A stretch of DNA of 64,000 bases from Minisyncoccota bacterium (GTDB lineage Bacteria; Patescibacteriota; Microgenomatia; UBA1400; PJMF01): positions 48,604 to 112,603 of the forward strand of contig JAAYYE010000012.1 of assembly GCA_012515515.1 (NCBI GenBank). The letters run 5' to 3'. A model generated the notes under the pieces. The model made no database searches and had not been told where the DNA came from. It saw only the letters and a list, made by a program, of their open reading frames with translations. Position 1 is the stretch's first letter. Each line of letters opens with the position of its first letter. Shown here piece after piece: positions 14,210 through 49,581 of this stretch. The position numbers and the translations under genes were made by a program.

Positions 14210-15862
<1,653 letters not shown>

Positions 15863-15875
15863 TTATTCAAATTAA

Positions 15876-16178
15876 TTATTTAATAATTGCTAAAATATCC
15901 TCAAATTTCAAAATTTGATATTCAATATCGTCAACAGTAACTTCGTTACCGCCCCATTTTTTGTAAAGCACTTTATCAGCAACTTTAGCAGGAGCTTTAA
16001 TTTCATGACCATCCTCATGGATGGATGCGCCAACAGCCAACACTTGCCCATACTGAGGCTTTTCACTATCATTAACAGCTAAAATAATTCCTGAAGCAGT
16101 TTGCTTTTCTTGCTCAGCTGGTTTAACTAAAATGTAGCCAGCAGTAGGTTGTAATTTTTTTATTGCTAACTTTGACAT
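15876..16178 (-). CDS. groS: Co-chaperonin GroES
   Basis: LKPLxDRVLVK-type N-terminus (IKKLQPTAGYILVKPAEQE), 100 aa, immediately upstream of groEL. Confidence 0.9.
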   Translation of the reverse strand: MSKLAIKKLQPTAGYILVKPAEQEKQTASGIILAVNDSEKPQYGQVLAVGASIHEDGHEIKAPAKVADKVLYKKWGGNEVTVDDIEYQILKFEDILAIIK

Positions 16179-16275
16179 AAAAACCTTTCTCGGTATTTTA
16201 ATTTTTAGTAGCTATTAAATTTGATGAATAATTTGAGTCATCAAAGCGAATAAAAGTTAACACGAATTATCAATT

Positions 16276-16302
16276 TTAGCAAGTGGTGAATTAGACTGCT
16301 AA
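16276..16302. promoter_or_regulatory. CIRCE-like operator upstream of groES (TTAGCA-N15-TGCTAA core)
   Basis: TTAGCAAGT-GGTGAATTA-GACTGCTAA about 100 nt upstream of groES ATG; core hexamers perfect at canonical spacing, inner arm bases imperfect. Confidence 0.5.
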
Positions 16303-16727
16303 TTTATCGATAATTGATTATTTATTAAAAAAATCGTATTCATCAAGTTAATTACCTTGTTGATTTCGTCAGCCAGTTGGAGAGAGAGCTGAGAATGCTC
16401 GCCCGCCACTCTTAGCGCGTTTAAAGATAAATTAGAATCCTGAATAATTAATTCGCCCAATTGGATGACAAGTTGTTGGTGCCCATCTAACCACTGAGAC
16501 CTCTCCTTCTCCGATTTAAAGCTAATCTTTTCTAAAAATGCTGATAATTTTTGCGCTTCAAGCAGTTTTAATTGTAAATTAAATTCCAACTGCTGGCTTT
16601 CAAGATAATCATCGGGCTGCTGATTTAAGGATAAAGTTTTGATAGACTCTGCAAATTGTTCCTCATCTAATGAGTAACGCAATTTAATTTCATTTAATAA
16701 GTCTCGTAAATGATCGTTTTTTGCCAT
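16299..16727 (-). CDS. Hypothetical coiled-coil protein
   Basis: ORF only; Q/L-rich predicted coiled coil, no recognizable motif. Confidence 0.3.
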   Translation of the reverse strand: MAKNDHLRDLLNEIKLRYSLDEEQFAESIKTLSLNQQPDDYLESQQLEFNLQLKLLEAQKLSAFLEKISFKSEKERSQWLDGHQQLVIQLGELIIQDSNLSLNALRVAGEHSQLSLQLADEINKVINLMNTIFLINNQLSIN

Positions 16728-16775
16728 ATTTCAGGTATAATAACCAGCCTAAGAGCCTTTATCATACTAGAGAAA

Positions 16776-17876
16776 ATGAAAATTATAAAGTTAAATTTAG
16801 CATTAGCAAAAAAAGCCAAGATTACTCAAGTCATTAATGAGGCAATTGCGGTGATTAATGGTGGAGGTCTATTAATTTATCCAACTGAAACAACTTATGG
16901 CATTGGCGCTGATCCGCATAATCAACAAGCAGTTGATAAAGTGCTTCAGTATAAAAGTCGCCGTGAAGGTAAGCCTTTGTCGCTAGCTGTTGCTGATCGT
17001 GCTATGGCTGAAAGATACGTGGCGATTAATGATCAAGCCCAAAATTTTTATCAACGTTTTTTACCTGGACCATACACCGTCATTTCGGAATTAAAAACTA
17101 ATTGTCACATTGATCCGCGCGTGGCCAGTGAATTTGGCACCTTGGGCATTCGCATTCCCAACTATCCTTTTACTTTAGAGTTGCTTAAACAATTAGACCG
17201 TGCCATTACTGCCACTAGTGCTAATGCTTCTGATAAAAAACGCCCCTATCAGATTAATGACATTTTAGAAAATATTAGTGATAAGCAGAAAAAATTAATT
17301 GATCTAATTATTGATGTTGGCCAGCTTGAAAAAAATGAACCATCGGTAGTAATCGACACCACTTTATCAACCCCACTAACTATACGTGGTCAATTAGACA
17401 AACAAGCGGATTTTATTGAATTTAGTTCGCAAAGTGCTAATGAAACTCAAGAATTAGCTAAGCGCTTGATGCTTAAAAATTGGCATAAACTCAAAAAACA
17501 AGGCTTGCTCTTTGTTATGAATGGCGAACTGGGCATGGGTAAAACAGTTTTTGCCAAAGGTATAGCTAAATTTTTACACATCCAAGAAGAAATCACTTCA
17601 CCAACTTACAGTTATCTTAATGAATATGCCTTTCAAAAAGAAAACACTCAGGGTGTTTTTTATCACTTAGATGCCTGGAAAATTGATCAACAGGCAGAAT
17701 TTGCTTTACTAAAAATTGATCGCTTACTGAAAGCAAACAATGTTATCTTAATCGAATGGTGGGATAAGGTTGCCGATTTCTTAACAGAGGAAATCAAAAA
17801 GCAAGCTATTGTTCTAGAGTTAAGTGGCCATGACAATTGGCGTAAAATTAAATTATGGGAAACAAAGAAAAATTAA
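16776..17876 (+). CDS. tsaC-tsaE: Fusion protein: YrdC/TsaC (L-threonylcarbamoyladenylate synthase domain) + TsaE (t6A ATPase)
   Basis: N-half LLIYPTETTYGIGAD (YrdC/Sua5 fold); C-half FVMNGELGMGKTVFAKGIAKFL...TSPTYSYLNEY (TsaE/YjeE P-loop and SPTF motif); likely start MKIIKL at 16776. Confidence 0.75.
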   Translation: MKIIKLNLALAKKAKITQVINEAIAVINGGGLLIYPTETTYGIGADPHNQQAVDKVLQYKSRREGKPLSLAVADRAMAERYVAINDQAQNFYQRFLPGPYTVISELKTNCHIDPRVASEFGTLGIRIPNYPFTLELLKQLDRAITATSANASDKKRPYQINDILENISDKQKKLIDLIIDVGQLEKNEPSVVIDTTLSTPLTIRGQLDKQADFIEFSSQSANETQELAKRLMLKNWHKLKKQGLLFVMNGELGMGKTVFAKGIAKFLHIQEEITSPTYSYLNEYAFQKENTQGVFYHLDAWKIDQQAEFALLKIDRLLKANNVILIEWWDKVADFLTEEIKKQAIVLELSGHDNWRKIKLWETKKN

Positions 17877-19009
17877 TTCTCGCTATCGATACTAGTTGCG
17901 ATGATACCAGTGTCGCGGTGCTGGCTGGCACTCGCGTCTTAGCCAATGTGCAAGCATCTCAAACTAATATTCATCAGCAGTATGGCGGAGTGTTTCCTAC
18001 TTTAGCCAAACAAGCCCACCAAGAACATATTGCTGACTGTGTAGATTTAGCGCTTAAAAGAGCTGGTTTATCGAATAGCAAGGAGCAAAAAACTAACTTG
18101 GACGCTTTAGCCGTCACTGTCGGACCGGGTCTCGCTCCAGCTTTAGAGGTCGGCATTAACTATGCTAAAAAATTAGCGCAAAAGTGGCAGACTCCTCTTA
18201 TTCCCATTAATCACATTGAAGCGCACGCTATTTCTCCACTACTTAATCCACAAACTTGCCAAGCACCGCGCACAGTAAATTTTCCGGTTTTAGCTCTCGT
18301 TATTTCTGGCGGTCATAGTGAATTTATTTTAATTAAAAAAATTGGAGATTATGAGCGCCTCGGCTGGACCGTTGATGATAGCGCTGGCGAATGTCTTGAT
18401 AAAATTGGCCGGATGCTCGATTTGGGTTATCCAGCCGGACCAGTTTTAGAAAAATTGGCAAAAAAAGGCAAGTCAAATCGCTGGCCTTTGCCTTTAGCGA
18501 TGACTGCTGTCGAAAATTTTAATCTTAGTTTTTCTGGACTGAAAACGGCTGGTCATCAGCTAATTAATCAACTCTCAGCAAAACAGCCATTAGATGCCCA
18601 AAGCGTTTGTGATCTAGCAGCCTGTGTGCAAAAACAGGTTTTTGCGCAAATTAATTTCAAACTGGAAAGAATTCTGTTTAGCCCAGATTTAAAGAAAACA
18701 ACTTACCCCAATAAACAATATCTCAAAAAAATTAAGCGCCAAGAAATTCAAGCCCCAGTGACCGAGATCAATGAAGTTTGGCTGGGTGGTGGTGTGGCAG
18801 CTAATATAGTTTTGCGAGCTAGTATTAGAAAAACCTTAAGCAATTACCAAAAAATTACAAAGAAAAAAATTAAACTTTTTTTACCTTATCATAAAAAATT
18901 TTGTGCTGATAATGCTGCCATGATTGCCCTCGTCGCTCAGTTTCGCTCATTGAAAAAAAATTATCATCCTCAAGAGTTAGATCGTCAGCCCAATCTAAAA
19001 ATCGGCTAG
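17855..19009 (+). CDS. tsaD: tRNA N6-adenosine threonylcarbamoyltransferase TsaD (Kae1/YgjD)
   Basis: LAIDTSCDDTSVAVL, HxxxH metal site region (HIEAHA), ASKHP fold; overlaps upstream gene by 22 nt. Confidence 0.85.
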   Translation: MGNKEKLILAIDTSCDDTSVAVLAGTRVLANVQASQTNIHQQYGGVFPTLAKQAHQEHIADCVDLALKRAGLSNSKEQKTNLDALAVTVGPGLAPALEVGINYAKKLAQKWQTPLIPINHIEAHAISPLLNPQTCQAPRTVNFPVLALVISGGHSEFILIKKIGDYERLGWTVDDSAGECLDKIGRMLDLGYPAGPVLEKLAKKGKSNRWPLPLAMTAVENFNLSFSGLKTAGHQLINQLSAKQPLDAQSVCDLAACVQKQVFAQINFKLERILFSPDLKKTTYPNKQYLKKIKRQEIQAPVTEINEVWLGGGVAANIVLRASIRKTLSNYQKITKKKIKLFLPYHKKFCADNAAMIALVAQFRSLKKNYHPQELDRQPNLKIG

Positions 19010-19037
19010 CTTTGCCAAGCGTGATAAAATGTGAGTA

Positions 19038-20798
19038 GTGCAAGAACTAGTCTTGTTTCCTCTACTCGCCAAATCCCAAGCCCACTATTTTGTTGCTGCT
19101 TTTTATAATAAACAAGAAAATTTAATTGTTGCTTTTAGTCTGCAGGGGCCAGATGCTCATTTTTTTGGTAAGGATCTGCAATTAAAAATGTTTAATTGGC
19201 AATTTAAGGGTGCTGAAGAATTACATCTTGCTTTGCTTGACCTTAATAAAGAATGTCGCCTAAACAAATTGCAATTAAATTTTGCCATTAGCTTAAAACT
19301 GCATAAGCAACTAATACTGGTCTGCCAAGGCGGGAGTATCTTGCTCAAGCGTCATCAACAACTTAAAGAATTATTAAGTAGTCAACATGAGATACAAATG
19401 GTGGTTGGTCAATATGCTGAAAATGACCAATTATTATTAATAGCTGGTAATCATTTATTGGGGCAAGTTATTTTAGAAAAAAGTCTAAGTCAATCATTAG
19501 AACTTATTCTCGAGGAAAAACTTAATGATTACCTCAAGAATAATTTTAAAACTGCCTTAGTCTTATGGCGTTATCAGGCCAAAGAAAAAATTGTTTGGAC
19601 AAAAAAGCTTGCTCAACTAAAAACTTATATCAATCGGCTTAAATTAATGCCTGCTAAACTTACTAGTCTTTGGAGAAAAATAAAAGACCTCCGACAAGAA
19701 CAAAAAAAACGCTATCAAAAAATATTTATAGCTGCTGGGGCAATTATTTTCATCACGATGATTGCCACTCTGCTCTGGCAACATCAGCAAGAAAAAACCC
19801 TAGATAGCATTGGGCAAGAAATTAGCTCAATAATTCCCAGTGACGAAGAATTGTTGTTGTTAAGTGCTACTCAGCCCGTGCTAGCCAGAGAAAAAATAAG
19901 CAAAAGTCAAGCAACTTTGCAAGAATTGTTGACTGAAACAAGTTCACGAACAGCCAAAAAGAAAATAGAGGCAGAAATTGAGCAATTACAAGCGATTGCT
20001 GAAAAATTAAGCAGTGAAAATAATCTGGATCAATTGGTCATTTATAGCAATTGGTACGATAGTTATCCCAATTTTTTAGGCAAAAAAATCCTGAGTAGTC
20101 CCCAAGGTTTGATAGTCGCTAATGATCAAAAAAATCAATTATTGCTCATCAAAGAACAAAACAATTTTTCCTTGTGGGAAAATGATTTTCAAGATTTCGC
20201 TGTTGATCGAAGTAACAGTGATCAACTCAACATTTTCATCAAAAACCAAGGTATTAAATATTTGAATTGGGAAAATGCAAATCTAAGTGAATTAAAAAGT
20301 GAAGGAGATTCGGATCGAGATGCCTTATTACTCGAAAGTTATCAAGCTTATCTCTATTTATTGAATCCAGAAAAGCGTAACATTTATCGTTACACTTTAA
20401 GAGGTGGAGAATTAAGCGAAGCAATTGGTTGGTTGGTCGAAAAACAAGGCATTAATTTTGCCGATATTAGCGACCTGAATGTCGACGGCAATCTTTGGTT
20501 AACTTTTAAAGACGCTGAAATTATGAAATTTGATAGAGGTTATCAAGAAGAATTTTCATTAAGCGGTTTGGAACAAATGCCCAATAGCTCGCTTTTAATA
20601 GCTACCCAAGAAAATGCCGATAAGCTTGTTTTCTTAGACACAGGCAATAATCGCTTAATCGTCACTACCAGGGAGGGTCAGTTAATTAGTGAAATCAAAA
20701 GTAATGAGTTAGCTGGGGTGAGCGATATTGTTTTAGCTGATGATGGTCAAAGCTGTTTTGCTTTGAGCGGTTCGGTTATTTATCAAATCCAACTGTAA
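19038..20798 (+). CDS. Hypothetical membrane protein, cytoplasmic N-domain, one TM, C-terminal beta-propeller/NHL-like repeats
   Basis: TM IFIAAGAIIFITMIATLLW at about residue 235; C-terminal LVFLDTGNNRLIVTTREGQLISEI resembles NHL repeat. Confidence 0.3.
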   Translation: MQELVLFPLLAKSQAHYFVAAFYNKQENLIVAFSLQGPDAHFFGKDLQLKMFNWQFKGAEELHLALLDLNKECRLNKLQLNFAISLKLHKQLILVCQGGSILLKRHQQLKELLSSQHEIQMVVGQYAENDQLLLIAGNHLLGQVILEKSLSQSLELILEEKLNDYLKNNFKTALVLWRYQAKEKIVWTKKLAQLKTYINRLKLMPAKLTSLWRKIKDLRQEQKKRYQKIFIAAGAIIFITMIATLLWQHQQEKTLDSIGQEISSIIPSDEELLLLSATQPVLAREKISKSQATLQELLTETSSRTAKKKIEAEIEQLQAIAEKLSSENNLDQLVIYSNWYDSYPNFLGKKILSSPQGLIVANDQKNQLLLIKEQNNFSLWENDFQDFAVDRSNSDQLNIFIKNQGIKYLNWENANLSELKSEGDSDRDALLLESYQAYLYLLNPEKRNIYRYTLRGGELSEAIGWLVEKQGINFADISDLNVDGNLWLTFKDAEIMKFDRGYQEEFSLSGLEQMPNSSLLIATQENADKLVFLDTGNNRLIVTTREGQLISEIKSNELAGVSDIVLADDGQSCFALSGSVIYQIQL

Positions 20799-20816
20799 AA
20801 CTGTTACAATATAGCC

Positions 20817-21287
20817 ATGTTATTGTTAAAAAATAAAAAGGCTTATTTTGACTATAAATTAGAAAAAAAGTATCAAGCTGGGATTGTTTTAAGTGGAGCT
20901 GAAGTTAAAAGTTTAAGATTAAAACATGCAAGTTTAGCGGGTAGTTATGTTAAGGCTTTAGTCAATAAAAACAAACAAGCTGAACTATATCTGATCAATG
21001 CCCAAATTAATGCTTATCGCTTTGCTAATCAACATGATGATTACGATCCTAAAAGAAGTCGCAAATTATTACTCAAAAGAAAAGAAATCGAAGAGCTGTT
21101 GCAGAGTAGCGAACAACAATCTTACAGTATTATCCCCTTAGCTTTTATTCTAGAACGAAATTACATTAAGCTAGAAATAGCCCTTGCCAAAGGTAAAAAA
21201 GTTTTTGAAAAAAGAGAAACTCTGAAAAAGAAGGATTTGAGAAGAGAAATGGGCAAAAAATTAAAACTTAGTCAAATAAAAATTTAA
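20817..21287 (+). CDS. smpB: SsrA-binding protein SmpB
   Basis: KKAYFDYKLEKKYQAGIVLSGAEVKSLR typical SmpB N-terminus. Confidence 0.85.
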   Translation: MLLLKNKKAYFDYKLEKKYQAGIVLSGAEVKSLRLKHASLAGSYVKALVNKNKQAELYLINAQINAYRFANQHDDYDPKRSRKLLLKRKEIEELLQSSEQQSYSIIPLAFILERNYIKLEIALAKGKKVFEKRETLKKKDLRREMGKKLKLSQIKI

Positions 21288-21313
21288 AAGTCACTCTTGC
21301 TTGTCGCCTCGTT

Positions 21314-21571
21314 TTGTTTTTTAATAGAAGGTATCAATTAAAAAAGGAAAATATGCCTAAAAGAGTTTTTTGGCCTGCCACCTTAGTAATTATGGGTCTT
21401 ATTTCCATGGCCTCAAGCATGGGATTTCTACCAGAAATGTTTTGGAATCTCTGGCCAATAATTATGATTTTAGTTGGTTTGGGTGGATTAATTACTTCTG
21501 ATCAAGAAGAATGGCTTATTAAACCCAGCAGCAAACCAGCCAAAAGAAAAAAAACTGCCCGCAAAAAATAA
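21314..21571 (+). CDS. Small hypothetical membrane protein
   Basis: Two predicted TM helices, basic C-tail; ORF only. Confidence 0.3.
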   Translation: MFFNRRYQLKKENMPKRVFWPATLVIMGLISMASSMGFLPEMFWNLWPIIMILVGLGGLITSDQEEWLIKPSSKPAKRKKTARKK

Positions 21572-22535: not shown

Positions 22536-25103
22536 TTAAAAAATTTGCCCACCCTGAAACTGAGCTGCCTCAATTGTTTTTTGTTCATTTGCCGCGGCTA
22601 AATCAATAAAATATTGATCGCTGCAAGCTTGCAGTGGTTCAGTACCCGCTACAAAAATTTCTTCTACTACTTTAGGGCAAGCGCTACAAGGTAAAGTCCC
22701 CGTTGTGGCACAAATTTTAACTTTTTTAAGATTGCTGGGCATCGCGAAGCGATGAGGATTTTGCTTATCAAGAAGTAAGAGAAAAATTTTATTCCAAATT
22801 GGCGATGCCCCGGTAATTCCAGAAGCCACATAGCTCATGGGCGTGTTGTCATTGTTGCCTACCCAAGTCGCAACCAAGCGATCCGTAGTATAACCAATTG
22901 TCCAGTTGTCCTTCATGCTGTTGGTGGTGCCTGTTTTAACCGCGACTTCTTGATTGGGAATATTTAACACCGAGTGCAAACCAAAAGCGCTAGCTCGAGC
23001 TTGATTATCAGACAAAATATCAGAGATTGTATAAGCCACGCTGGGGCTTAATTTTAAGGAAGTGTAACAATTAGTTGTAGAAATAGCACAATTATTAGAA
23101 TACAAAGTCTGACCGCCGGCATCTCTAATTTCTAAAAAAGGATTAGCTTCAACTGGATAACCTAAATTGGCAAAAGTGCTAAAGACTTCAACCATGTCGA
23201 TCATTAATACCTCGCCCGCTCCCAGGGTTAAAGATAAACCAAAACGACTAGGATCGGTCCAGGTGCTGATACCTAACTCTCGGCCTTCATTAATTAAATT
23301 TTGCACACCTAGCTCGGCTAACAATTTGACTGCTGGCACATTGTAAGAAGAAGCCAAGGCTTCTCTTAAAGTAATTTTGCCGCGAAATTTTCCGTCATAG
23401 TTGCGTGGCGTGTAGGGACGACTGCCAACTATTTGGTAAGTAATGCTGCTGTCCTCAATTAAATCACTTGGTTTTTTACCCTGCTCAAAAGCTAAGGCAT
23501 AAGTTAAAGGTTTAATGGATGATCCTGGTTGGCGTGGTCGAAGGGTCACATTAACTTGACCATCGTGAGCAAAATCGAAATAGTTCACTCCACCGATCAT
23601 CGCTAAAATTTCACCTGTCTTGGGATTGGTAACCAGGGCTGCTCCATTGCTAATGTGTAAATTCCCCAAAAGATTAATTTCTTCACTGACTATCTTTTGC
23701 ACCTCTTCTTGTAAAGTTAAATCCAAGGTGGTTCTGACTTCTAAACCGCCTTTTGCCACCAAATCTTCTCCATACATTTCAGCCAATAATTTTTTAACAT
23801 ACATCACAAAATGCGGTGCTTTAATATCAATCACATCCTCGCTAAACTGCAGTTTTTCTACTCTAGCTTCGTCTGCTTGTTCTTGACTAATATAGCCATC
23901 TTCAACCATTCTCCTTAAAACGTCTGCTTGTCTAGCTTTGGCTATTTCTGGATTGGGCCCATAGGGCGAATAAGTACTAGGAGCTTGTGGAAGGCCAGCC
24001 AACAAGGCACTCTCAGCTAAACTTAAATCTTTAGCTCTTTTGTTAAAATAGCGCCAAGAAGCTTCCTCAATGCCATATGTAGAACCGCCATAAGGCACTG
24101 TGTTTAAATACATTTCCAGAATTTCATCTTTTTCGTAGGCTCCTTCTACTACTAAAGACAATAACAATTCTCTTAGTTTTCTTTGCAAGGTTCGTTCATT
24201 GCTCAGCAAACGGCTTTTAACTAATTGTTGGGTGATGGTCGATCCACCCTGCACTTTATCACTAGTGACATTTGTAAATAGAGCCCGCAAAATGCCTACA
24301 GGTGAAAAACCAAAATGTTGATAAAAATTTTTATCCTCGATAGCAATCGTGGCATTAATTAAATGTTCAGAAACAGATTTTAGAGGAACCAAAGTCCTGT
24401 TTTCATCCTCGTAAATTCGATAAAGCATTTGTCCATTACGATCTAAAATTCGCGTCGTGAGATTTTGCTGCTGAGTACTTAGATCAGTGGCAGAGGGCAA
24501 ATCTTTAAAAACAAAATCATAAACTCCATAGCTAAATAATAAAAAAAGTAGAGAAAAAATAATTGAAGCAAATAAAGAAAAGTTAATACGCCAGCGTTTA
24601 ACTTTTTTTAGACCAGTTTGAAAATAAGCAATTTCTTTTTTTTGAAAAAGGATTTTTCTTAAACTAGTTAAGTAATTTTTTTTGAAAAATGAAAAACGAG
24701 TCTTCTTTTTTCTTGGTCGACCCACTCTTTTTTTTAGACCGCAAAATCTTAGAAATTTCTGCCAACGAGCTTGATGCTTTTTAAGAAATTGTTTTCGAGA
24801 TTTAGCATTCTTGTTTTTTCGCTGTTGCCAAAAACGTTTAAATTTAACAGTTTTGGCTAATTTTGGTCGGCCAGGACTCTGTTTAATTCCAGTTTTTTTA
24901 GCCAAAATTAAAAAGCCTGCTTTTATTTTTTTTGCGTTTTTTTTAATTTTTTTCTGCTTTTCTTTAATTTTGTCCAGAATAAATCTATAACACTTCACAT
25001 GAAAAGCCAATTGTGGTCGGCCACGTTTTCTTTTTTTTTGCTCTAAGCGATATTTTTTTTGCTTTTCTTGAGAATTTTTCCTGACTGCCATGCTAAAAAG
25101 CAT
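22536..25103 (-). CDS. mrcA: Class A penicillin-binding protein (PBP1A-type transglycosylase/transpeptidase) with about 170-aa lysine-rich cytoplasmic N-terminal extension
   Basis: GT51 motifs ATIAIEDKNFYQH, QGGSTITQQLVK; transpeptidase SxxK (SSIKP), SxN, KTG(T); K/R-rich N-terminus before TM. Confidence 0.85.
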   Translation of the reverse strand: MLFSMAVRKNSQEKQKKYRLEQKKRKRGRPQLAFHVKCYRFILDKIKEKQKKIKKNAKKIKAGFLILAKKTGIKQSPGRPKLAKTVKFKRFWQQRKNKNAKSRKQFLKKHQARWQKFLRFCGLKKRVGRPRKKKTRFSFFKKNYLTSLRKILFQKKEIAYFQTGLKKVKRWRINFSLFASIIFSLLFLLFSYGVYDFVFKDLPSATDLSTQQQNLTTRILDRNGQMLYRIYEDENRTLVPLKSVSEHLINATIAIEDKNFYQHFGFSPVGILRALFTNVTSDKVQGGSTITQQLVKSRLLSNERTLQRKLRELLLSLVVEGAYEKDEILEMYLNTVPYGGSTYGIEEASWRYFNKRAKDLSLAESALLAGLPQAPSTYSPYGPNPEIAKARQADVLRRMVEDGYISQEQADEARVEKLQFSEDVIDIKAPHFVMYVKKLLAEMYGEDLVAKGGLEVRTTLDLTLQEEVQKIVSEEINLLGNLHISNGAALVTNPKTGEILAMIGGVNYFDFAHDGQVNVTLRPRQPGSSIKPLTYALAFEQGKKPSDLIEDSSITYQIVGSRPYTPRNYDGKFRGKITLREALASSYNVPAVKLLAELGVQNLINEGRELGISTWTDPSRFGLSLTLGAGEVLMIDMVEVFSTFANLGYPVEANPFLEIRDAGGQTLYSNNCAISTTNCYTSLKLSPSVAYTISDILSDNQARASAFGLHSVLNIPNQEVAVKTGTTNSMKDNWTIGYTTDRLVATWVGNNDNTPMSYVASGITGASPIWNKIFLLLLDKQNPHRFAMPSNLKKVKICATTGTLPCSACPKVVEEIFVAGTEPLQACSDQYFIDLAAANEQKTIEAAQFQGGQIF

Positions 25104-30336: not shown

Positions 30337-32778
30337 TTGAAACAGCTAAAAAAATCCAAGAGCATGCTGAATAAAAAACTTATTAGTAAAAGCCAAAAAA
30401 AGAAGATTGAGAGCCAGAAAATGAAGATTAAGAGCTCTTTTTTATATTGGCAAAAAAAAATCAAAAAAATTTTTTGGCAAAATAAAAAATGGCGCTTTAC
30501 TTGGATGGCTGCCTTGCTGCTCATCATCGCTGTATTAATCTATTTACTAAAAGATTTACCATCACCTACAAAATTAACTTCTTCAGAAAATTACGCTGTT
30601 AGTACGCAAATTTTTGATCGCAATGGTCAGTTGTTGTATGAGGTGTATGGAGACGAAAACCGCACTCCTGTTGATATTGAGTCTTTGCCCGATCATTTGT
30701 TACAAGCCACCATTGCCATTGAAGATAAAAATTTTTATCGACATCATGGTTTAGACATTCGGGGCTTAGTGAGAGCAGCCATCAATAATATCACTGGCGG
30801 CAACACTCAGGGCGGTTCTACAATCACCCAGCAATTGGTAAAAAATGCTTTATTAACTAAAGATAGAACTTTTGATAGAAAAATTAAAGAAGCCTTCTTA
30901 TCATTTTTAACCGAAATCATTTACAAAAAAGAAGACATTTTAGAAATGTATCTTAACTATATTCCTTATGGAGGCACAGCCGTTGGCGTTGAAGCAGCAG
31001 CCAATCAATATTTCAATAAATCAGCCAAAGATTTAACTATGGCTGAAAGTGCTTTATTAGCTGGATTACCAAAAGCACCTAGCACTTATTCGCCTTTTGG
31101 CGCTTATCCAGAAAAAGCTAAAATGAGACAAAAAGAGGTTTTGCGCCGAATGTCTGAAGACGGATACATCAATAAAGACAGATTGAATGAAGTTGAAAAT
31201 GAAACATTAACTTACGCCCTAAAAAAAACCGATATTAAAGCTCCTCATTTTGTCTTTTACATAATCGATTTGTTGCAAAAAGAATACGGTGAAGACACGG
31301 TTAAAACTGGCGGATTGCGCGTCACCACTACCCTCGATTTAGATTTACAAGAAGCGGCTCAAGCTTCTTTATCTGCCGAAATTAATAAGTTAAGTAATTT
31401 AAAAGTTAGTAACGGAGCGGCTTTGGTCACTAAACCAAACACTGGAGAAATCTTAGCAATGATTGGTAGCAAAAATTATTTTGACATGGATCATGATGGA
31501 CAAGTTAATGTAACTATTGCTTTCAGACAGCCTGGCTCATCAATTAAACCAATTATGTATGCCAGTGCTTTTCAGGAAAAGACACTGAATCCAGGCTCAA
31601 TGCTTTTAGACATCTCCACTTGTTTTAGAGTGACTGGTCAAAAGGATTATTGTCCAAAAAATTATAGTGGCGGATTTTCTGGTCCAGTCACGGTCAGAAA
31701 AGCTTTGGGCAATTCTCTGAATATCCCCGCAGTCAAAGCTTTAAGTACTATTGGCGTTGAAAAATTTATTAAACAAGCCAATAAAATGGGCATTACCAAC
31801 TGGGTTGATCCAAGTCAATATGGCTTATCTTTAACTCTGGGAGGCGGAGAAGTCAGAATGGTCGACATGGCAACTGCTTTTGCTGTGATAGCTAACCAAG
31901 GAGTTAAAGTGCCAAGCACAGCCATTTTAGAAGTAAAAAATTACAAAGGTGAAGTTTTGAGCAGTGCTGATTTGGAAACTCGCAAACAAACATTACTCCA
32001 CATGACTGAAAATGAAGAAATCACTGAAGAAATTGATTTAGAAAGAGTTATGCGGCGAGCGCCAGCCTATCTAACTGCCCACATCATGCAAGACAATAGC
32101 GCTCGCCTCATGGCCTTTGGTAGCAATAGCCAGCTAGTAATTAAAGATAAAGTAGTGAGTGCTAAAACTGGCACCACCAACGACCTAAAAGATAATTGGA
32201 CTGTCGGTTTTACTCCAGAATTTTTAAGCATTGTGTGGGTGGGTAATAATGACAATTCTTCGATGAGTTACTTGGCTTCTGGCATCACTGGTGCCGCACC
32301 AATTTGGAATGATATCATGAGCTATATTTTAGAAAATGAACAAATTATTTGGCCTGAGCGTCCAGCCGATGTAAAGATGGCCTATGTCTGTCAAACAGGC
32401 ATGCCAGCTGATCGTGGTTTGGGCAATAATCGTAACGATTGGATGAATAGAAACACTAGTGATTTAACGCTTAAATTCAACGAACAACAGCAAATTTATT
32501 TACAAGAAACTGACCCAGCGCAAACTTGCCAAGCTGGCGCACAAGAGCTTTATTGGGAAGAATCACTACCAAGCTATTCTGGTAGTTTCCAAAAAGAGTT
32601 TTGGATTCGTAAGGAAACTGGACTACCACCTGCCGTTGGCGAAGAAGCCGATGATTTGGTTTTAGAATTACATCAATTTTATTATGATCCAGTTACTAGC
32701 CTCTACTGTGCTGATTGTACTCGACCAATTGATGAAGAAACTGGCGAAACCATTTTTGAAAAAAATTATGTTAATTAG
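30337..32778 (+). CDS. Class A penicillin-binding protein, second paralog, lysine-rich N-terminal tail
   Basis: ATIAIEDKNFYRHHG, QGGSTITQQLVKN (GT51); transpeptidase SSIKP, SLN, KTGTT. Confidence 0.85.
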   Translation: MKQLKKSKSMLNKKLISKSQKKKIESQKMKIKSSFLYWQKKIKKIFWQNKKWRFTWMAALLLIIAVLIYLLKDLPSPTKLTSSENYAVSTQIFDRNGQLLYEVYGDENRTPVDIESLPDHLLQATIAIEDKNFYRHHGLDIRGLVRAAINNITGGNTQGGSTITQQLVKNALLTKDRTFDRKIKEAFLSFLTEIIYKKEDILEMYLNYIPYGGTAVGVEAAANQYFNKSAKDLTMAESALLAGLPKAPSTYSPFGAYPEKAKMRQKEVLRRMSEDGYINKDRLNEVENETLTYALKKTDIKAPHFVFYIIDLLQKEYGEDTVKTGGLRVTTTLDLDLQEAAQASLSAEINKLSNLKVSNGAALVTKPNTGEILAMIGSKNYFDMDHDGQVNVTIAFRQPGSSIKPIMYASAFQEKTLNPGSMLLDISTCFRVTGQKDYCPKNYSGGFSGPVTVRKALGNSLNIPAVKALSTIGVEKFIKQANKMGITNWVDPSQYGLSLTLGGGEVRMVDMATAFAVIANQGVKVPSTAILEVKNYKGEVLSSADLETRKQTLLHMTENEEITEEIDLERVMRRAPAYLTAHIMQDNSARLMAFGSNSQLVIKDKVVSAKTGTTNDLKDNWTVGFTPEFLSIVWVGNNDNSSMSYLASGITGAAPIWNDIMSYILENEQIIWPERPADVKMAYVCQTGMPADRGLGNNRNDWMNRNTSDLTLKFNEQQQIYLQETDPAQTCQAGAQELYWEESLPSYSGSFQKEFWIRKETGLPPAVGEEADDLVLELHQFYYDPVTSLYCADCTRPIDEETGETIFEKNYVN

Positions 32779-43678: not shown

Positions 43679-43806
43679 CTTGGTTCTGGCCTCGACCTAT
43701 CTTCGCAAGGGGAAACCCCTAACTATTGTCAGCGCTGAGACGTTTCAAGACTCTGTTCGGGATGGGAAGAGTTGGGACCATCTCGCTCCAGAGACCAGAA
43801 CCAAAG
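43679..43806 (-). rRNA. rrf: 5S ribosomal RNA
   Basis: Minus-strand ...GATGGTCCCAACTCTTCCCATCCCGAACAGAGTCTTGAAACG... with helix I pairing CCTTTGGTTCTGG/CCAGAACCAAGG. Confidence 0.85.
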
Positions 43807-43904
43807 GTTTTTTATTTATTTGTTAATTATATAGCACAACTGTGCTTAAACATGTGAAGAAGTCAACCGTCACCCAATAATAGTCTTGAGAATTAACGAA
43901 AACT

Positions 43905-46823
<2,919 letters not shown>

Positions 46824-47241: not shown

Positions 47242-49581
47242 TTACAATAATTGCGCTCGCTGACCGATTTCCTCTTCAAGTAATTCTTTGTCCTTGCCGT
47301 ATTTAAGCCGTGATAGTTTTTTAATTAGTTCTGATAATTTAGGATTCATTTTGGCCTCCTGAGCCTTAATGTCTTTTAAGAGTGACATGCTAAACGCACT
47401 TACCGGTTGATTATCAACAATAGTCTTTATATAAGCGTGATATTTATCGACATTGGCCAAGTCTGTTTCATTAAAAGTTGGTGAGAATTCATGTTGTAAA
47501 AAATTAGCATCAGTGACACCGACGCGAAAAGCCACCATCGTCCCCACATTACCAAAAACAGCATTTTTAATATCTTCTTCGATTTGACCAATAAATTGGT
47601 TAGCGACTATTAAATTTAAGCGATATTTACGAGCTTCAGACAAAATAGAAGCAAAATCTTCGGTGGCAAAGTTTTGAAATTCATCCACATAAAGGAAAAA
47701 GTCATTACGTTTCTCCATCGCGACATTTTGACGACTCATGGCAGCGGTTAAAATTTTAGGCACTAAAATTAAACCCAAAAATTTAGCATCTTCTTCACCA
47801 ATGACGCCTTTACTCAAATTACACAGAATAATTTTCTTCTCATCCATTGCCTTGCGAAAATCAAAAGCACTTTCACTTTGGCCAATGATGTTGCGCATGG
47901 TTTTGTTGGTCACAAAACGACCAAATTTCGAAACAATATAATCTAAGACTTCAGATTTGTGGAAATCACTGGTGCTCGCAATCTGGTCAGTCCAATAGCG
48001 CTTAACCATCGGATCTTTGACAAAAGGCAAATAATCTTCAACATATTTAGAATCAGTCAAAATTCTTACCAATTCAATAAAAGTTGCTCCAGGCTTGGCC
48101 ATAATGGTTAACATTCCATTGCGAATGGCGTGCTCAAAACGTGGACCAACAATTCCTGTTCGATGAGGATCGTAGAGCTTATACATTAAACCGATTACCG
48201 CGCTGGCCATAAATTGTTGCTGCTCTTCATTATGGGCTTCCATAATGTTCATCCCCAGTGGTCGCTCAGTATCGGCTGGATTAAAATAAATAACATCCTC
48301 GGCTCTTTCTGGAGGCATTAATTGCAATAAATCCTCAACCAGATCGCCGTGAGGATCAATGACTGCCACTCCTTGGCCGTTTTGAATATCCTGCAGAGCC
48401 AAATCTTTCAAAAATTCTGATTTACCTGTGCCTGTTTTTCCAATGATATAAGTGTGACGACGGCGATCTTCAAGAGACATATAAATCCCTCGTTCGACGC
48501 CTCGATATTTTGATTTACCCAAATACAAGCCTTTAGTGGGAATTTTATTTGAGGCTGGTGCGCTTTTAGCACTTAACCAACGCATATGGTGAGTTTCAAC
48601 TGTTTTATTAGGGAAATGCATTAGAGTAGCTAGTTCTTCAGTATTCAGAATGGTTTTTCTTAAGGGAATAAAAGACAGGTAGCGGTAAATAAAGTCGATC
48701 ATAAATGAGTGTTTAAAAAGGATGTTTCTTCTTTTAAATTCGTTATAAGGAGAAGAAAACTGAGAAAAAGCGCCAATTAAATTATTTAAATGAGCTTTGG
48801 CAGTCATGTCATTATTGGCTGAAACAACCATACGAATAGCAGTTTTAAAACCTGGTTTACTAATTTTAGTATTAATGGCTTCAACTTCTTTGGGGTCATG
48901 AGTGTAACTAGCTGTATCTGGATTAGCTTCTTGTTTTTTTTGCTTTTGATTATGACGTTCGCCTTTTATCTGCCAACCCCTTCCGGCCGGTTGCAGTAAA
49001 ATTTGTAAAGTGGCTCCTTCACCATCACTCATTTTCGATAAGGCACTGGTAATTAAAGACAAACCATCAGTTGGCAAATCTTTGTAAGTTTTAATTGGAT
49101 AAAAACTGGCTTTATCCAACTTTAGATCACTAAACGCGACTCGACCCGTATCACTAAAAATATTAACTTCATCGACTTCACTAATGGCCGCTGATGGATA
49201 AGCTCCATTAATTTGTTTTTCTACCAAATCTTGAATATGGCGAGGACAAGTAACATAAAAAGCAATATCTTCTTTCAGACCTATAATTTCAAAACCAATA
49301 GTTTCTTCAGGTTCTAAGAATGAAAAAGCGCCAACCTTTTTTAGTGAATAAAGACCTGCAAACATTTGTTCCGCAGCATCAATCTTAATTTCATTACTTT
49401 TTGGCAACTTAACCAGTAAGGTGACAAAATTAAGAGCATATTTCTCTCGACGCCTATTTTTAATAAAGATGCTTAGAGAATAAAGTAAAAAAGCTACTAC
49501 ACCCACCAAAATTAAAACCGTTAAAAAATTTAAGACAAAATTATTGGCGCTAGATAGTATTTGTTCTCCTTGTGGCGACAT
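47242..49581 (-). CDS. VirB4/TraG(VirD4)-family conjugation/type IV secretion-like P-loop ATPase with single N-terminal TM
   Basis: Walker A HTYIIGKTGTGKSEF, VAVIDPHGD, Walker B LYVDEFQNF, ARKYRLNLIVANQ (TrwB/TraD-like arginine finger region); Walker A at about residue 390 of 779 as in VirB4. Confidence 0.55.
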   Translation of the reverse strand: MSPQGEQILSSANNFVLNFLTVLILVGVVAFLLYSLSIFIKNRRREKYALNFVTLLVKLPKSNEIKIDAAEQMFAGLYSLKKVGAFSFLEPEETIGFEIIGLKEDIAFYVTCPRHIQDLVEKQINGAYPSAAISEVDEVNIFSDTGRVAFSDLKLDKASFYPIKTYKDLPTDGLSLITSALSKMSDGEGATLQILLQPAGRGWQIKGERHNQKQKKQEANPDTASYTHDPKEVEAINTKISKPGFKTAIRMVVSANNDMTAKAHLNNLIGAFSQFSSPYNEFKRRNILFKHSFMIDFIYRYLSFIPLRKTILNTEELATLMHFPNKTVETHHMRWLSAKSAPASNKIPTKGLYLGKSKYRGVERGIYMSLEDRRRHTYIIGKTGTGKSEFLKDLALQDIQNGQGVAVIDPHGDLVEDLLQLMPPERAEDVIYFNPADTERPLGMNIMEAHNEEQQQFMASAVIGLMYKLYDPHRTGIVGPRFEHAIRNGMLTIMAKPGATFIELVRILTDSKYVEDYLPFVKDPMVKRYWTDQIASTSDFHKSEVLDYIVSKFGRFVTNKTMRNIIGQSESAFDFRKAMDEKKIILCNLSKGVIGEEDAKFLGLILVPKILTAAMSRQNVAMEKRNDFFLYVDEFQNFATEDFASILSEARKYRLNLIVANQFIGQIEEDIKNAVFGNVGTMVAFRVGVTDANFLQHEFSPTFNETDLANVDKYHAYIKTIVDNQPVSAFSMSLLKDIKAQEAKMNPKLSELIKKLSRLKYGKDKELLEEEIGQRAQLL

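Follow-up and report, generated by a model that had tools for sequence, protein, structure and literature searches.

A TsaC-TsaE fusion gene next to tsaD in Patescibacteria

In the usual bacterial systems for N6-threonylcarbamoyladenosine (t6A), a universal modification of tRNA, TsaC and the P-loop ATPase TsaE are stand-alone proteins that act with the transferase subunit TsaD; the reference structures are those of E. coli YrdC (TsaC; 1HRU/2MX1) and of YjeE-type TsaE (1HTW; 6N9A/6S84). In the structure of the T. maritima TsaBDE complex, TsaE occupies the opening of the TsaD active site and lies on a surface that tRNA needs (Missoury et al. 2018, PMC6009658), and the same authors proposed that TsaE prepares TsaD for TsaC, followed by transfer of threonylcarbamoyl-AMP (TC-AMP), ATP hydrolysis, release of TsaE and binding of tRNA (PMC6009658). 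The four-protein TsaC-TsaB-TsaD-TsaE complex is transient and was seen in native gels only (PMC6009658). In E. coli, TsaB and TsaD were recovered in pull-downs with TsaC (PMC4615747), and according to the SyntTax paper no direct YrdC-YgjD complex interaction was known (PMC3571937). Here we describe a locus in which TsaC and TsaE form one polypeptide, encoded by a gene that overlaps tsaD. It lies in a 64,000-nucleotide stretch of DNA (64 kb, 36-40% GC; hereafter the window) from an ultra-small Minisyncoccota (Patescibacteria) bacterium (assembly GCA_012515515.1, contig JAAYYE010000012.1, positions 48,604 to 112,603). Folds, motifs and the partner gene tsaD are those of the stand-alone proteins; what differs is that the two enzymes are joined through a linker of about seven residues.

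Several known proteins tie a TsaC-like module to other domains, and each of them differs from the present fusion. Sua5/TsaC2 likewise has an N-terminal TsaC catalytic domain of about 200 residues, a linker and a second alpha/beta domain, but that second domain is SUA5, whereas here it is the TsaE P-loop ATPase. In TobZ and HypF, an adenylate-forming YrdC-like module is covalently tied to the transfer machinery, and their crystal structures contain a tunnel, which makes them a precedent for channelling an unstable acyl-adenylate (PMC6009658, PMC9654439). There, however, the synthase is joined to a Kae1/TsaD-like transferase, while in the window it is joined to an accessory ATPase and tsaD remains a separate gene; the fusion protein is not a member of these channelling carbamoyltransferases, although by analogy it may work in a similar way. 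Pandoravirus TsaN (TsaD-TsaC-SUA5-TcdA) is another natural multi-domain t6A fusion, matched by our protein in Foldseek through the TsaC part (8ide), but it has a different domain set without TsaE, acts on nucleotides rather than on tRNA and has no channel (PMC10484737). Further reported t6A gene fusions are YeaZ::RimI::YgjD, Alr::YjeE and hydrolase::YeaZ (PMC3571937), together with TsaC/HemK of M. genitalium and the archaeal Kae1-Bud32 (PMC4615747). Kae1-Bud32 resembles the present case in that a pathway enzyme is joined to an accessory ATPase or kinase; none of the Rosetta-stone fusions reported in these two papers joins TsaC to TsaE. Literature searches, with subscription journals mostly outside their reach, found no paper describing a TsaC-TsaE fusion, and direct search terms gave an artificial expression cassette only. 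TsaC-TsaE is a new domain architecture built from known enzymes. The initial annotation had supposed that it might already exist in databases, and hundreds of such proteins are indeed deposited; they are common in Patescibacteria and carry the TsaC name only, "L-threonylcarbamoyladenylate synthase".

The tsaC::tsaE gene occupies positions 16776..17876 of the forward strand as one continuous open reading frame (ORF) of 366 codons plus stop, from an ATG at 16776 to a TAA at 17874-17876, without any internal stop. A longer ORF from an ATG at 16710 is possible; in the alignment of relatives, the homologues begin at the methionine of MKI(I/L)KL. The TsaC (YrdC-type) domain covers residues 1-205 (16776..17390, +) and matches the Pfam family Sua5_yciO_yrdC (PF01300) over residues 26-204 (E 1.3e-43, 149 bits, cut-off 25.1) and the NCBIfam model TIGR00057 (160 bits, cut-off 123.2). 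It is followed by an interdomain linker of about seven residues (~206-212; 17391..17411, +), modelled by AlphaFold with lower confidence, and by the TsaE (YjeE) P-loop ATPase domain (residues ~213-366; 17412..17873, +), which matches PF02367 over residues 219-349 (E 1.5e-26, 93.3 bits, cut-off 26.6) and TIGR00150 (78.1 bits, cut-off 60.1). All four profiles thus exceed their curated cut-offs, and both peptides quoted in the initial annotation are present in the translation, which bears out its claim that a single ORF joins a YrdC/Sua5-type to a TsaE/YjeE domain; the search with PF01300 and PF02367 that it had called for supports both. The protein has no match to the SUA5 domain (PF03481, Pfam), which places it with TsaC and not with Sua5/TsaC2, and NCBIfam holds no fusion-specific model. 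As judged from these profiles, the fusion protein is a TsaC-type threonylcarbamoyl-AMP synthase domain followed by a complete TsaE P-loop ATPase.

The residues associated with catalysis are conserved in both halves. In the TsaC domain, the KxR motif is formed by K60-S61-R62 (nt 16953-16961), aligned with K50-Q-R52 of E. coli TsaC, and the SxN motif by S148-A149-N150 (nt 17217-17225), aligned with the S-A-N of the same protein. At these positions the E. coli paralogue YciO, the one YciO sequence compared, carries R-Q-L and S-L-M in the alignment; the two reference sequences were checked against PDB 1HRU/2MX1 (TsaC) and 1K7J (YciO). In the TsaE domain, the Walker A motif is G250-E-L-G-M-G-K-T257 (nt 17523-17546), and 18 positions that are invariant across 45 stand-alone TsaEs from GTDB loci are kept, among them Walker A, the S275-P-T-Y-S loop, H297, D299, E327, W328 and R356. 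The "YR" motif usual in TsaE is "WK/WR" in this clade: the window protein has WK, and W301 is invariant in 78 fusion sequences, while the more distant fusions retain Y at this position in the alignment. The exchange of YR for WK appears from these alignments to be a conservative, clade-wide change. From this pattern of conserved motifs we infer that the fusion protein has both enzyme activities.

The same architecture is widespread and its junction is conserved over large evolutionary distances. In a search of 5.8 billion clustered proteins, the 120 best relatives (52-93% identity), drawn from NCBI, JGI, ENA and Logan assemblies, all contain both Pfam domains and are 351-394 amino acids (aa) long, except for one fragment of 290 aa. 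When residues 150-300, which span the junction, were used as a HMMER query against 1.84 billion representatives at 50% clustering, 151 proteins were retrieved at E <= 1e-10, and about 130 of the best 150 of these 151 align across the junction; these representatives are mostly 340-450 aa long, with identities down to ~30%. Twelve aligned fusion proteins from GTDB species genomes and metagenome contigs (34-54% identity) have the same domain boundaries. The TsaC part ends in a pattern "...VIDTT....LR.G", followed by ~10-20 variable residues and a TsaE start of the form "S.S...T..lA", so that linker length differs between relatives and the domain boundaries remain constant. The carriers include contigs of 0.65-0.87 Mb. 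Because the same boundaries recur in distant relatives and in many clusters, the sequence comparison points to a single ancient fusion, early in a large patescibacterial lineage, rather than to repeated accidents or a sequencing error.

Structural modelling is consistent with a two-domain protein. The AlphaFold2 model of the fusion protein, built with 78 sequences, contains two well-folded domains (mean predicted local distance difference test score (pLDDT) of 91, predicted TM-score (pTM) of 0.81). The only internal stretch of lower confidence comprises residues ~201-212 (mean pLDDT of 64 for the block 201-210), and the first TsaE strand is modelled at residues 213-218. In Foldseek, the N-terminal half superposes on E. 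coli YrdC (1hru, TMt 0.81-0.82) and on YciO (1k7j, TMt 0.86), and the C-terminal half on HI0065 (1htw, TMt 0.80) and on T. maritima TsaE in the TsaB2D2E2 complex (6n9a_E, TMt 0.76). The short linker together with the pTM of 0.81 suggests that the modelled domains share a fixed interface and are not arranged as beads on a string. Sequence and Foldseek searches found no PDB chain that holds both a TsaC and a TsaE domain. The best whole-chain Foldseek matches are Sua5/TsaC2 proteins (TM ~0.5, root-mean-square deviation 13-15 Å), in which the TsaC half alone superposes; the idea that the TsaE domain is a structural stand-in for SUA5 is unsupported by these values.

Directly downstream lies tsaD, encoding the t6A transferase subunit (17855..19009, +; 384 aa). 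Its product matches PF00814 (E 4.8e-70) and the bacterial TsaD equivalog TIGR03723 (309 bits, cut-off 296.1), and its translation contains the HxxxH (NHIEAH) and DNAAMIA metal-site motifs. TsaD also carries a lysine-rich insertion of ~30 residues at positions ~277-307 (…SPDLKKTTYPNKQYLKKIKRQEIQAPVTE…), which is variable or absent in relatives, where the pairwise alignments break. The tsaD start codon precedes the stop codon of the fusion gene, and the 22-nt overlap given in the initial annotation can be read directly from the sequence at 17855..17876 (+). An overlap or a gap of a few nucleotides is likewise present in other fusion loci (L001, L003, L005, L006, L011, L015 and L087-L090). Gene order was compared in 18 fusion loci, the window included, 17 of which have enough downstream sequence, the remaining contig ending too early to show tsaD. 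In 16 of the 17, tsaD directly follows the fusion gene, 14 times by overlap or short gap and twice after 0.4-0.9 kb. Close relatives share the order groEL, groES, a small gene on the opposite strand, tsaC::tsaE, tsaD, a gene of ~600 aa, smpB, cmk, a class A penicillin-binding protein (PBP) gene and a class II ribonucleotide reductase gene with nrdR. A promoter and terminator scan of 16100-21400 gave counts at chance level and was uninformative.

Among the carriers with credible organism labels, all belong to Patescibacteria, Pacebacteria/Paceibacterota/Paceibacteria or Beckwithbacteria. Seven GTDB records (L005, L007-L009, L012, L013 and L015) are titled Pseudomonadales, Vitreimonas, Clostridia or Gammaproteobacteria. 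The four closer ones (L005, L007-L009) share the order groESL, small gene, fusion gene and tsaD, and all seven contigs have 37-45% GC; because of this patescibacterial gene order in four and the GC content of all seven, the labels of these third-party metagenome-assembled genome contigs look wrong, and we treat them as doubtful. A contig of Candidatus Saccharibacteria (L027, 10001-11515) carries a stand-alone tsaE directly followed by tsaD and lacks tsaB both between the two and in the rest of the 13.9-kb locus; the fusion is therefore not universal in the phylum.

In the window, groES-groEL (14210-16178, -) adjoins the t6A genes (16776-19009, +). The same linkage with groESL is found in the mycobacterial operon alr-tsaE-tsaB-rimI-tsaD-groES-groEL1 (PMC5335608). 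By analogy, the association of groESL with the t6A genes may be a remnant of an ancestral cluster of Gram-positive type from which tsaB and rimI have gone.

Taken together, we consider it probable that tsaC::tsaE encodes a functional bifunctional t6A protein that is translationally coupled to tsaD. In the mechanism that we propose, the TsaC domain would make the labile TC-AMP from threonine, bicarbonate and ATP, and the TsaE domain would dock where the TsaD active site opens and would reset or prime TsaD there. Each docking of ATP-bound TsaE on TsaD, normally on the TsaB-TsaD dimer, would bring the tethered TsaC along, such that TC-AMP would be produced and loaded beside the TsaD pocket with tRNA kept out. 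Once the TsaE domain hydrolyses ATP, the whole TsaC-TsaE protein would be released, tRNA would bind, and the threonylcarbamoyl group would then pass to A37 of the tRNA. A tether of ~7 residues would enforce the joint arrival of TsaC and TsaE, and the translational coupling to tsaD would fit a stoichiometric machine. By comparison with the published complex, the fusion fits the order of events proposed in 2018 (Missoury et al., PMC6009658). The initial annotation had suggested that TC-AMP production is physically coupled to the TsaD transfer step: the covalent TsaC-TsaE link stands, and from it we infer the coupling itself, namely the co-recruitment of TsaC with TsaE to TsaD and the hand-over of TC-AMP.

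Several points weigh against this interpretation. The fusion locus of a Beckwithbacteria contig (L010) has no tsaD within 6.9 kb downstream. TsaB, which TsaE needs in the systems studied, was not found in the window, its flanks or 17 related loci. In TobZ, the YrdC module and the TsaE site lie on opposite sides of the Kae1 module (PMC6009658), so a TsaC domain on a short tether may not reach a TobZ-like channel position. Finally, stoichiometric co-expression could be the sole reason why the fusion persists in a compact genome.

The last point leads to the main rival reading, a neutral or economy-driven origin, in which loss of a stop codon fused two neighbouring genes of the pathway in a streamlined genome with overlapping genes and the product was kept for 1:1 expression, without hand-over of TC-AMP or joint docking. 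The genes of the window are tightly packed, the 22-nt overlap with tsaD being followed by gaps of 28 and 18 nt to the next genes, and t6A genes do fuse with functionally unrelated partners, as in Alr::YjeE and hydrolase::YeaZ (PMC3571937) or TsaC/HemK of M. genitalium (PMC4615747). We nevertheless regard such an origin as rather unlikely, given that the same junction is held in relatives down to ~30-34% identity and in ~130 clusters at 50% identity, that the very short linker and the pTM of 0.81 suggest a fixed interface in the model, and that the joined partners are consecutive steps of one pathway with an unstable intermediate.

A second question is whether a bifunctional TsaC-TsaE protein would work with or without TsaB. 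The Gram-positive gene order places tsaB between tsaE and tsaD. In our scan it follows tsaE immediately in ~46 loci of Firmicutes, Actinobacteria and Spirochaetes; here this slot is empty, and the TsaE domain runs straight into tsaD. A TsaB profile was built from 46 TsaBs that directly follow tsaE in non-patescibacterial loci, found with E. coli YeaZ. In the six frames of the window, this hidden Markov model (HMM) detects only TsaD (E 3.9e-12; next match E > 1), and in 13 patescibacterial loci it again detects only TsaD in each. For four further fusion loci, the Pfam gene tables list a single PF00814 gene per locus, and a second PF00814 gene was found neither among the ORFs of the 64-kb window (Pfam) nor in ~18 kb beyond its ends (L085, L086). 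The local absence of tsaB reported in the initial annotation therefore holds for the window, flanks of ~18 kb and 17 related loci, all searched with profiles. An apparent TsaE::TsaB fusion in another locus (L038) is not claimed, the TsaE profile giving no match to that frame. A local absence is unremarkable, since in most bacterial phyla the t6A genes lie scattered (PMC3571937). Reduced genomes lose TsaE and keep TsaB, the only species with neither are two of Mycoplasma, and TsaE has not been reported where TsaB is missing (PMC4615747). Because TsaE is lost before TsaB in these published patterns, tsaB is very probably encoded elsewhere in the genome, beyond the sequence searched. That there is no TsaB at all, and that a Qri7-like TsaD homodimer is served by TsaC-TsaE in a t6A machine of two polypeptides, appears improbable; if true, it would be the first bacterial system with TsaE but without TsaB. 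A search of the literature on the t6A gene content of Patescibacteria and the candidate phyla radiation (CPR) found nothing relevant.

It is also conceivable, but very doubtful, that the N-terminal domain is a YciO-like paralogue with another RNA-related role and that the true TsaC/Sua5 is encoded elsewhere. Neither PF01300 nor TIGR00057 tells TsaC and YciO apart, the domain scores 71 bits against E. coli YciO and 48.6 bits against E. coli TsaC, and it superposes slightly better on 1k7j (YciO, TMt 0.86) than on 1hru (YrdC, TMt 0.81); moreover, YciO retains most active-site residues yet neither makes t6A nor takes over from TsaC in vivo (PMC12506659). Both motifs, KxR and SxN, are nevertheless of TsaC type, set against RQL and SLM in the single YciO compared, and the top matches among PDB sequences after MTH1692 are true TC-AMP synthases, with T. 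maritima TsaC2 at 90.8 bits and the Sua5 proteins of P. abyssi and S. tokodaii at 72.5 bits. In addition, the domain is joined to TsaE and has tsaD as a neighbour in almost all loci; yciO, by contrast, is clustered with rnm (PMC12506659). The weakest explanation, that a stop codon or frameshift was lost or introduced in assembly, sequencing or gene calling and artificially joined separate tsaC and tsaE genes, is hardly credible and was rejected: the frame is unbroken at the junction, where the initial annotation had advised a check, the same architecture and a homologous, conserved junction recur in 120 of the 120 best relatives from independent assemblies (NCBI, JGI, ENA and Logan), and AlphaFold models the junction region with confidence.

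The gene that follows tsaD (19038..20798, +) encodes a conserved protein of 586 aa without any Pfam, NCBIfam or TsaB-profile match, to which a fold was assigned with AlphaFold and Foldseek. From the N-terminus, the model (pLDDT 84) contains a PP2C-like phosphatase fold (2pk0, TMt 0.47), a single membrane helix (~228-247), long helices over ~140 residues and, at the C-terminus, an NHL-like beta-propeller with six blades (TRIM3 NHL, TMt 0.64). Model and TsaB HMM agree with the earlier description of this protein as membrane/NHL-like and devoid of TsaB features. In close relatives, and only there, the gene always lies between tsaD and smpB, and 41 database relatives were found; its product probably does not belong to the t6A machinery. 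A tsaB hidden in this protein was considered and rejected on the lack of a TsaB HMM match, the PP2C/helix/NHL model and the absence of the gene beside distant fusions. On the other side of the fusion gene, a small, conserved glutamine/leucine-rich protein of 142 aa without a family match is encoded divergently (16299..16727, -), separated by a 48-nt spacer. Genes of 117-126 aa occupy the same position in L003 and L005-L009 (homologues) and in L087-L090 (120-124 aa, unannotated). A tsaB hidden in this protein was rejected as well, there being no TsaB HMM match and no such gene beside the fusion in more distant lineages.

Further along the window, 23S and 5S rRNA genes are located at 43684-46822 (-), and the 64 kb contain no gene for 16S rRNA; upstream of them lie a tRNA gene and a gene for a TraG/VirD4-like coupling protein (47242-49581). 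Since 16S is absent from the window and other genes stand upstream of 23S/5S, the rRNA genes appear to be unlinked. The window also encodes, less than 10 kb apart, two class A penicillin-binding proteins with transglycosylase and transpeptidase domains (22536-25103, -, and 30337-32778, +), the first with a lysine/arginine-rich N-terminal extension of ~200 residues.

Ever since reconstitution of the bacterial pathway, it has been asked by which route TC-AMP reaches TsaD from TsaC and what purpose the TsaE ATPase cycle serves. The covalent link between TsaC and TsaE, conserved across a large lineage, is independent support, of the Rosetta-stone type, for TsaE-bound TsaD as the state that accepts TC-AMP. 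The fusion protein is, in addition, a natural construct that should stabilise the elusive quaternary complex for cryo-electron microscopy (cryo-EM) and kinetics. For the carriers themselves, naming these proteins as TsaC only has a practical consequence: automated surveys would score genomes with the fusion as lacking TsaE.

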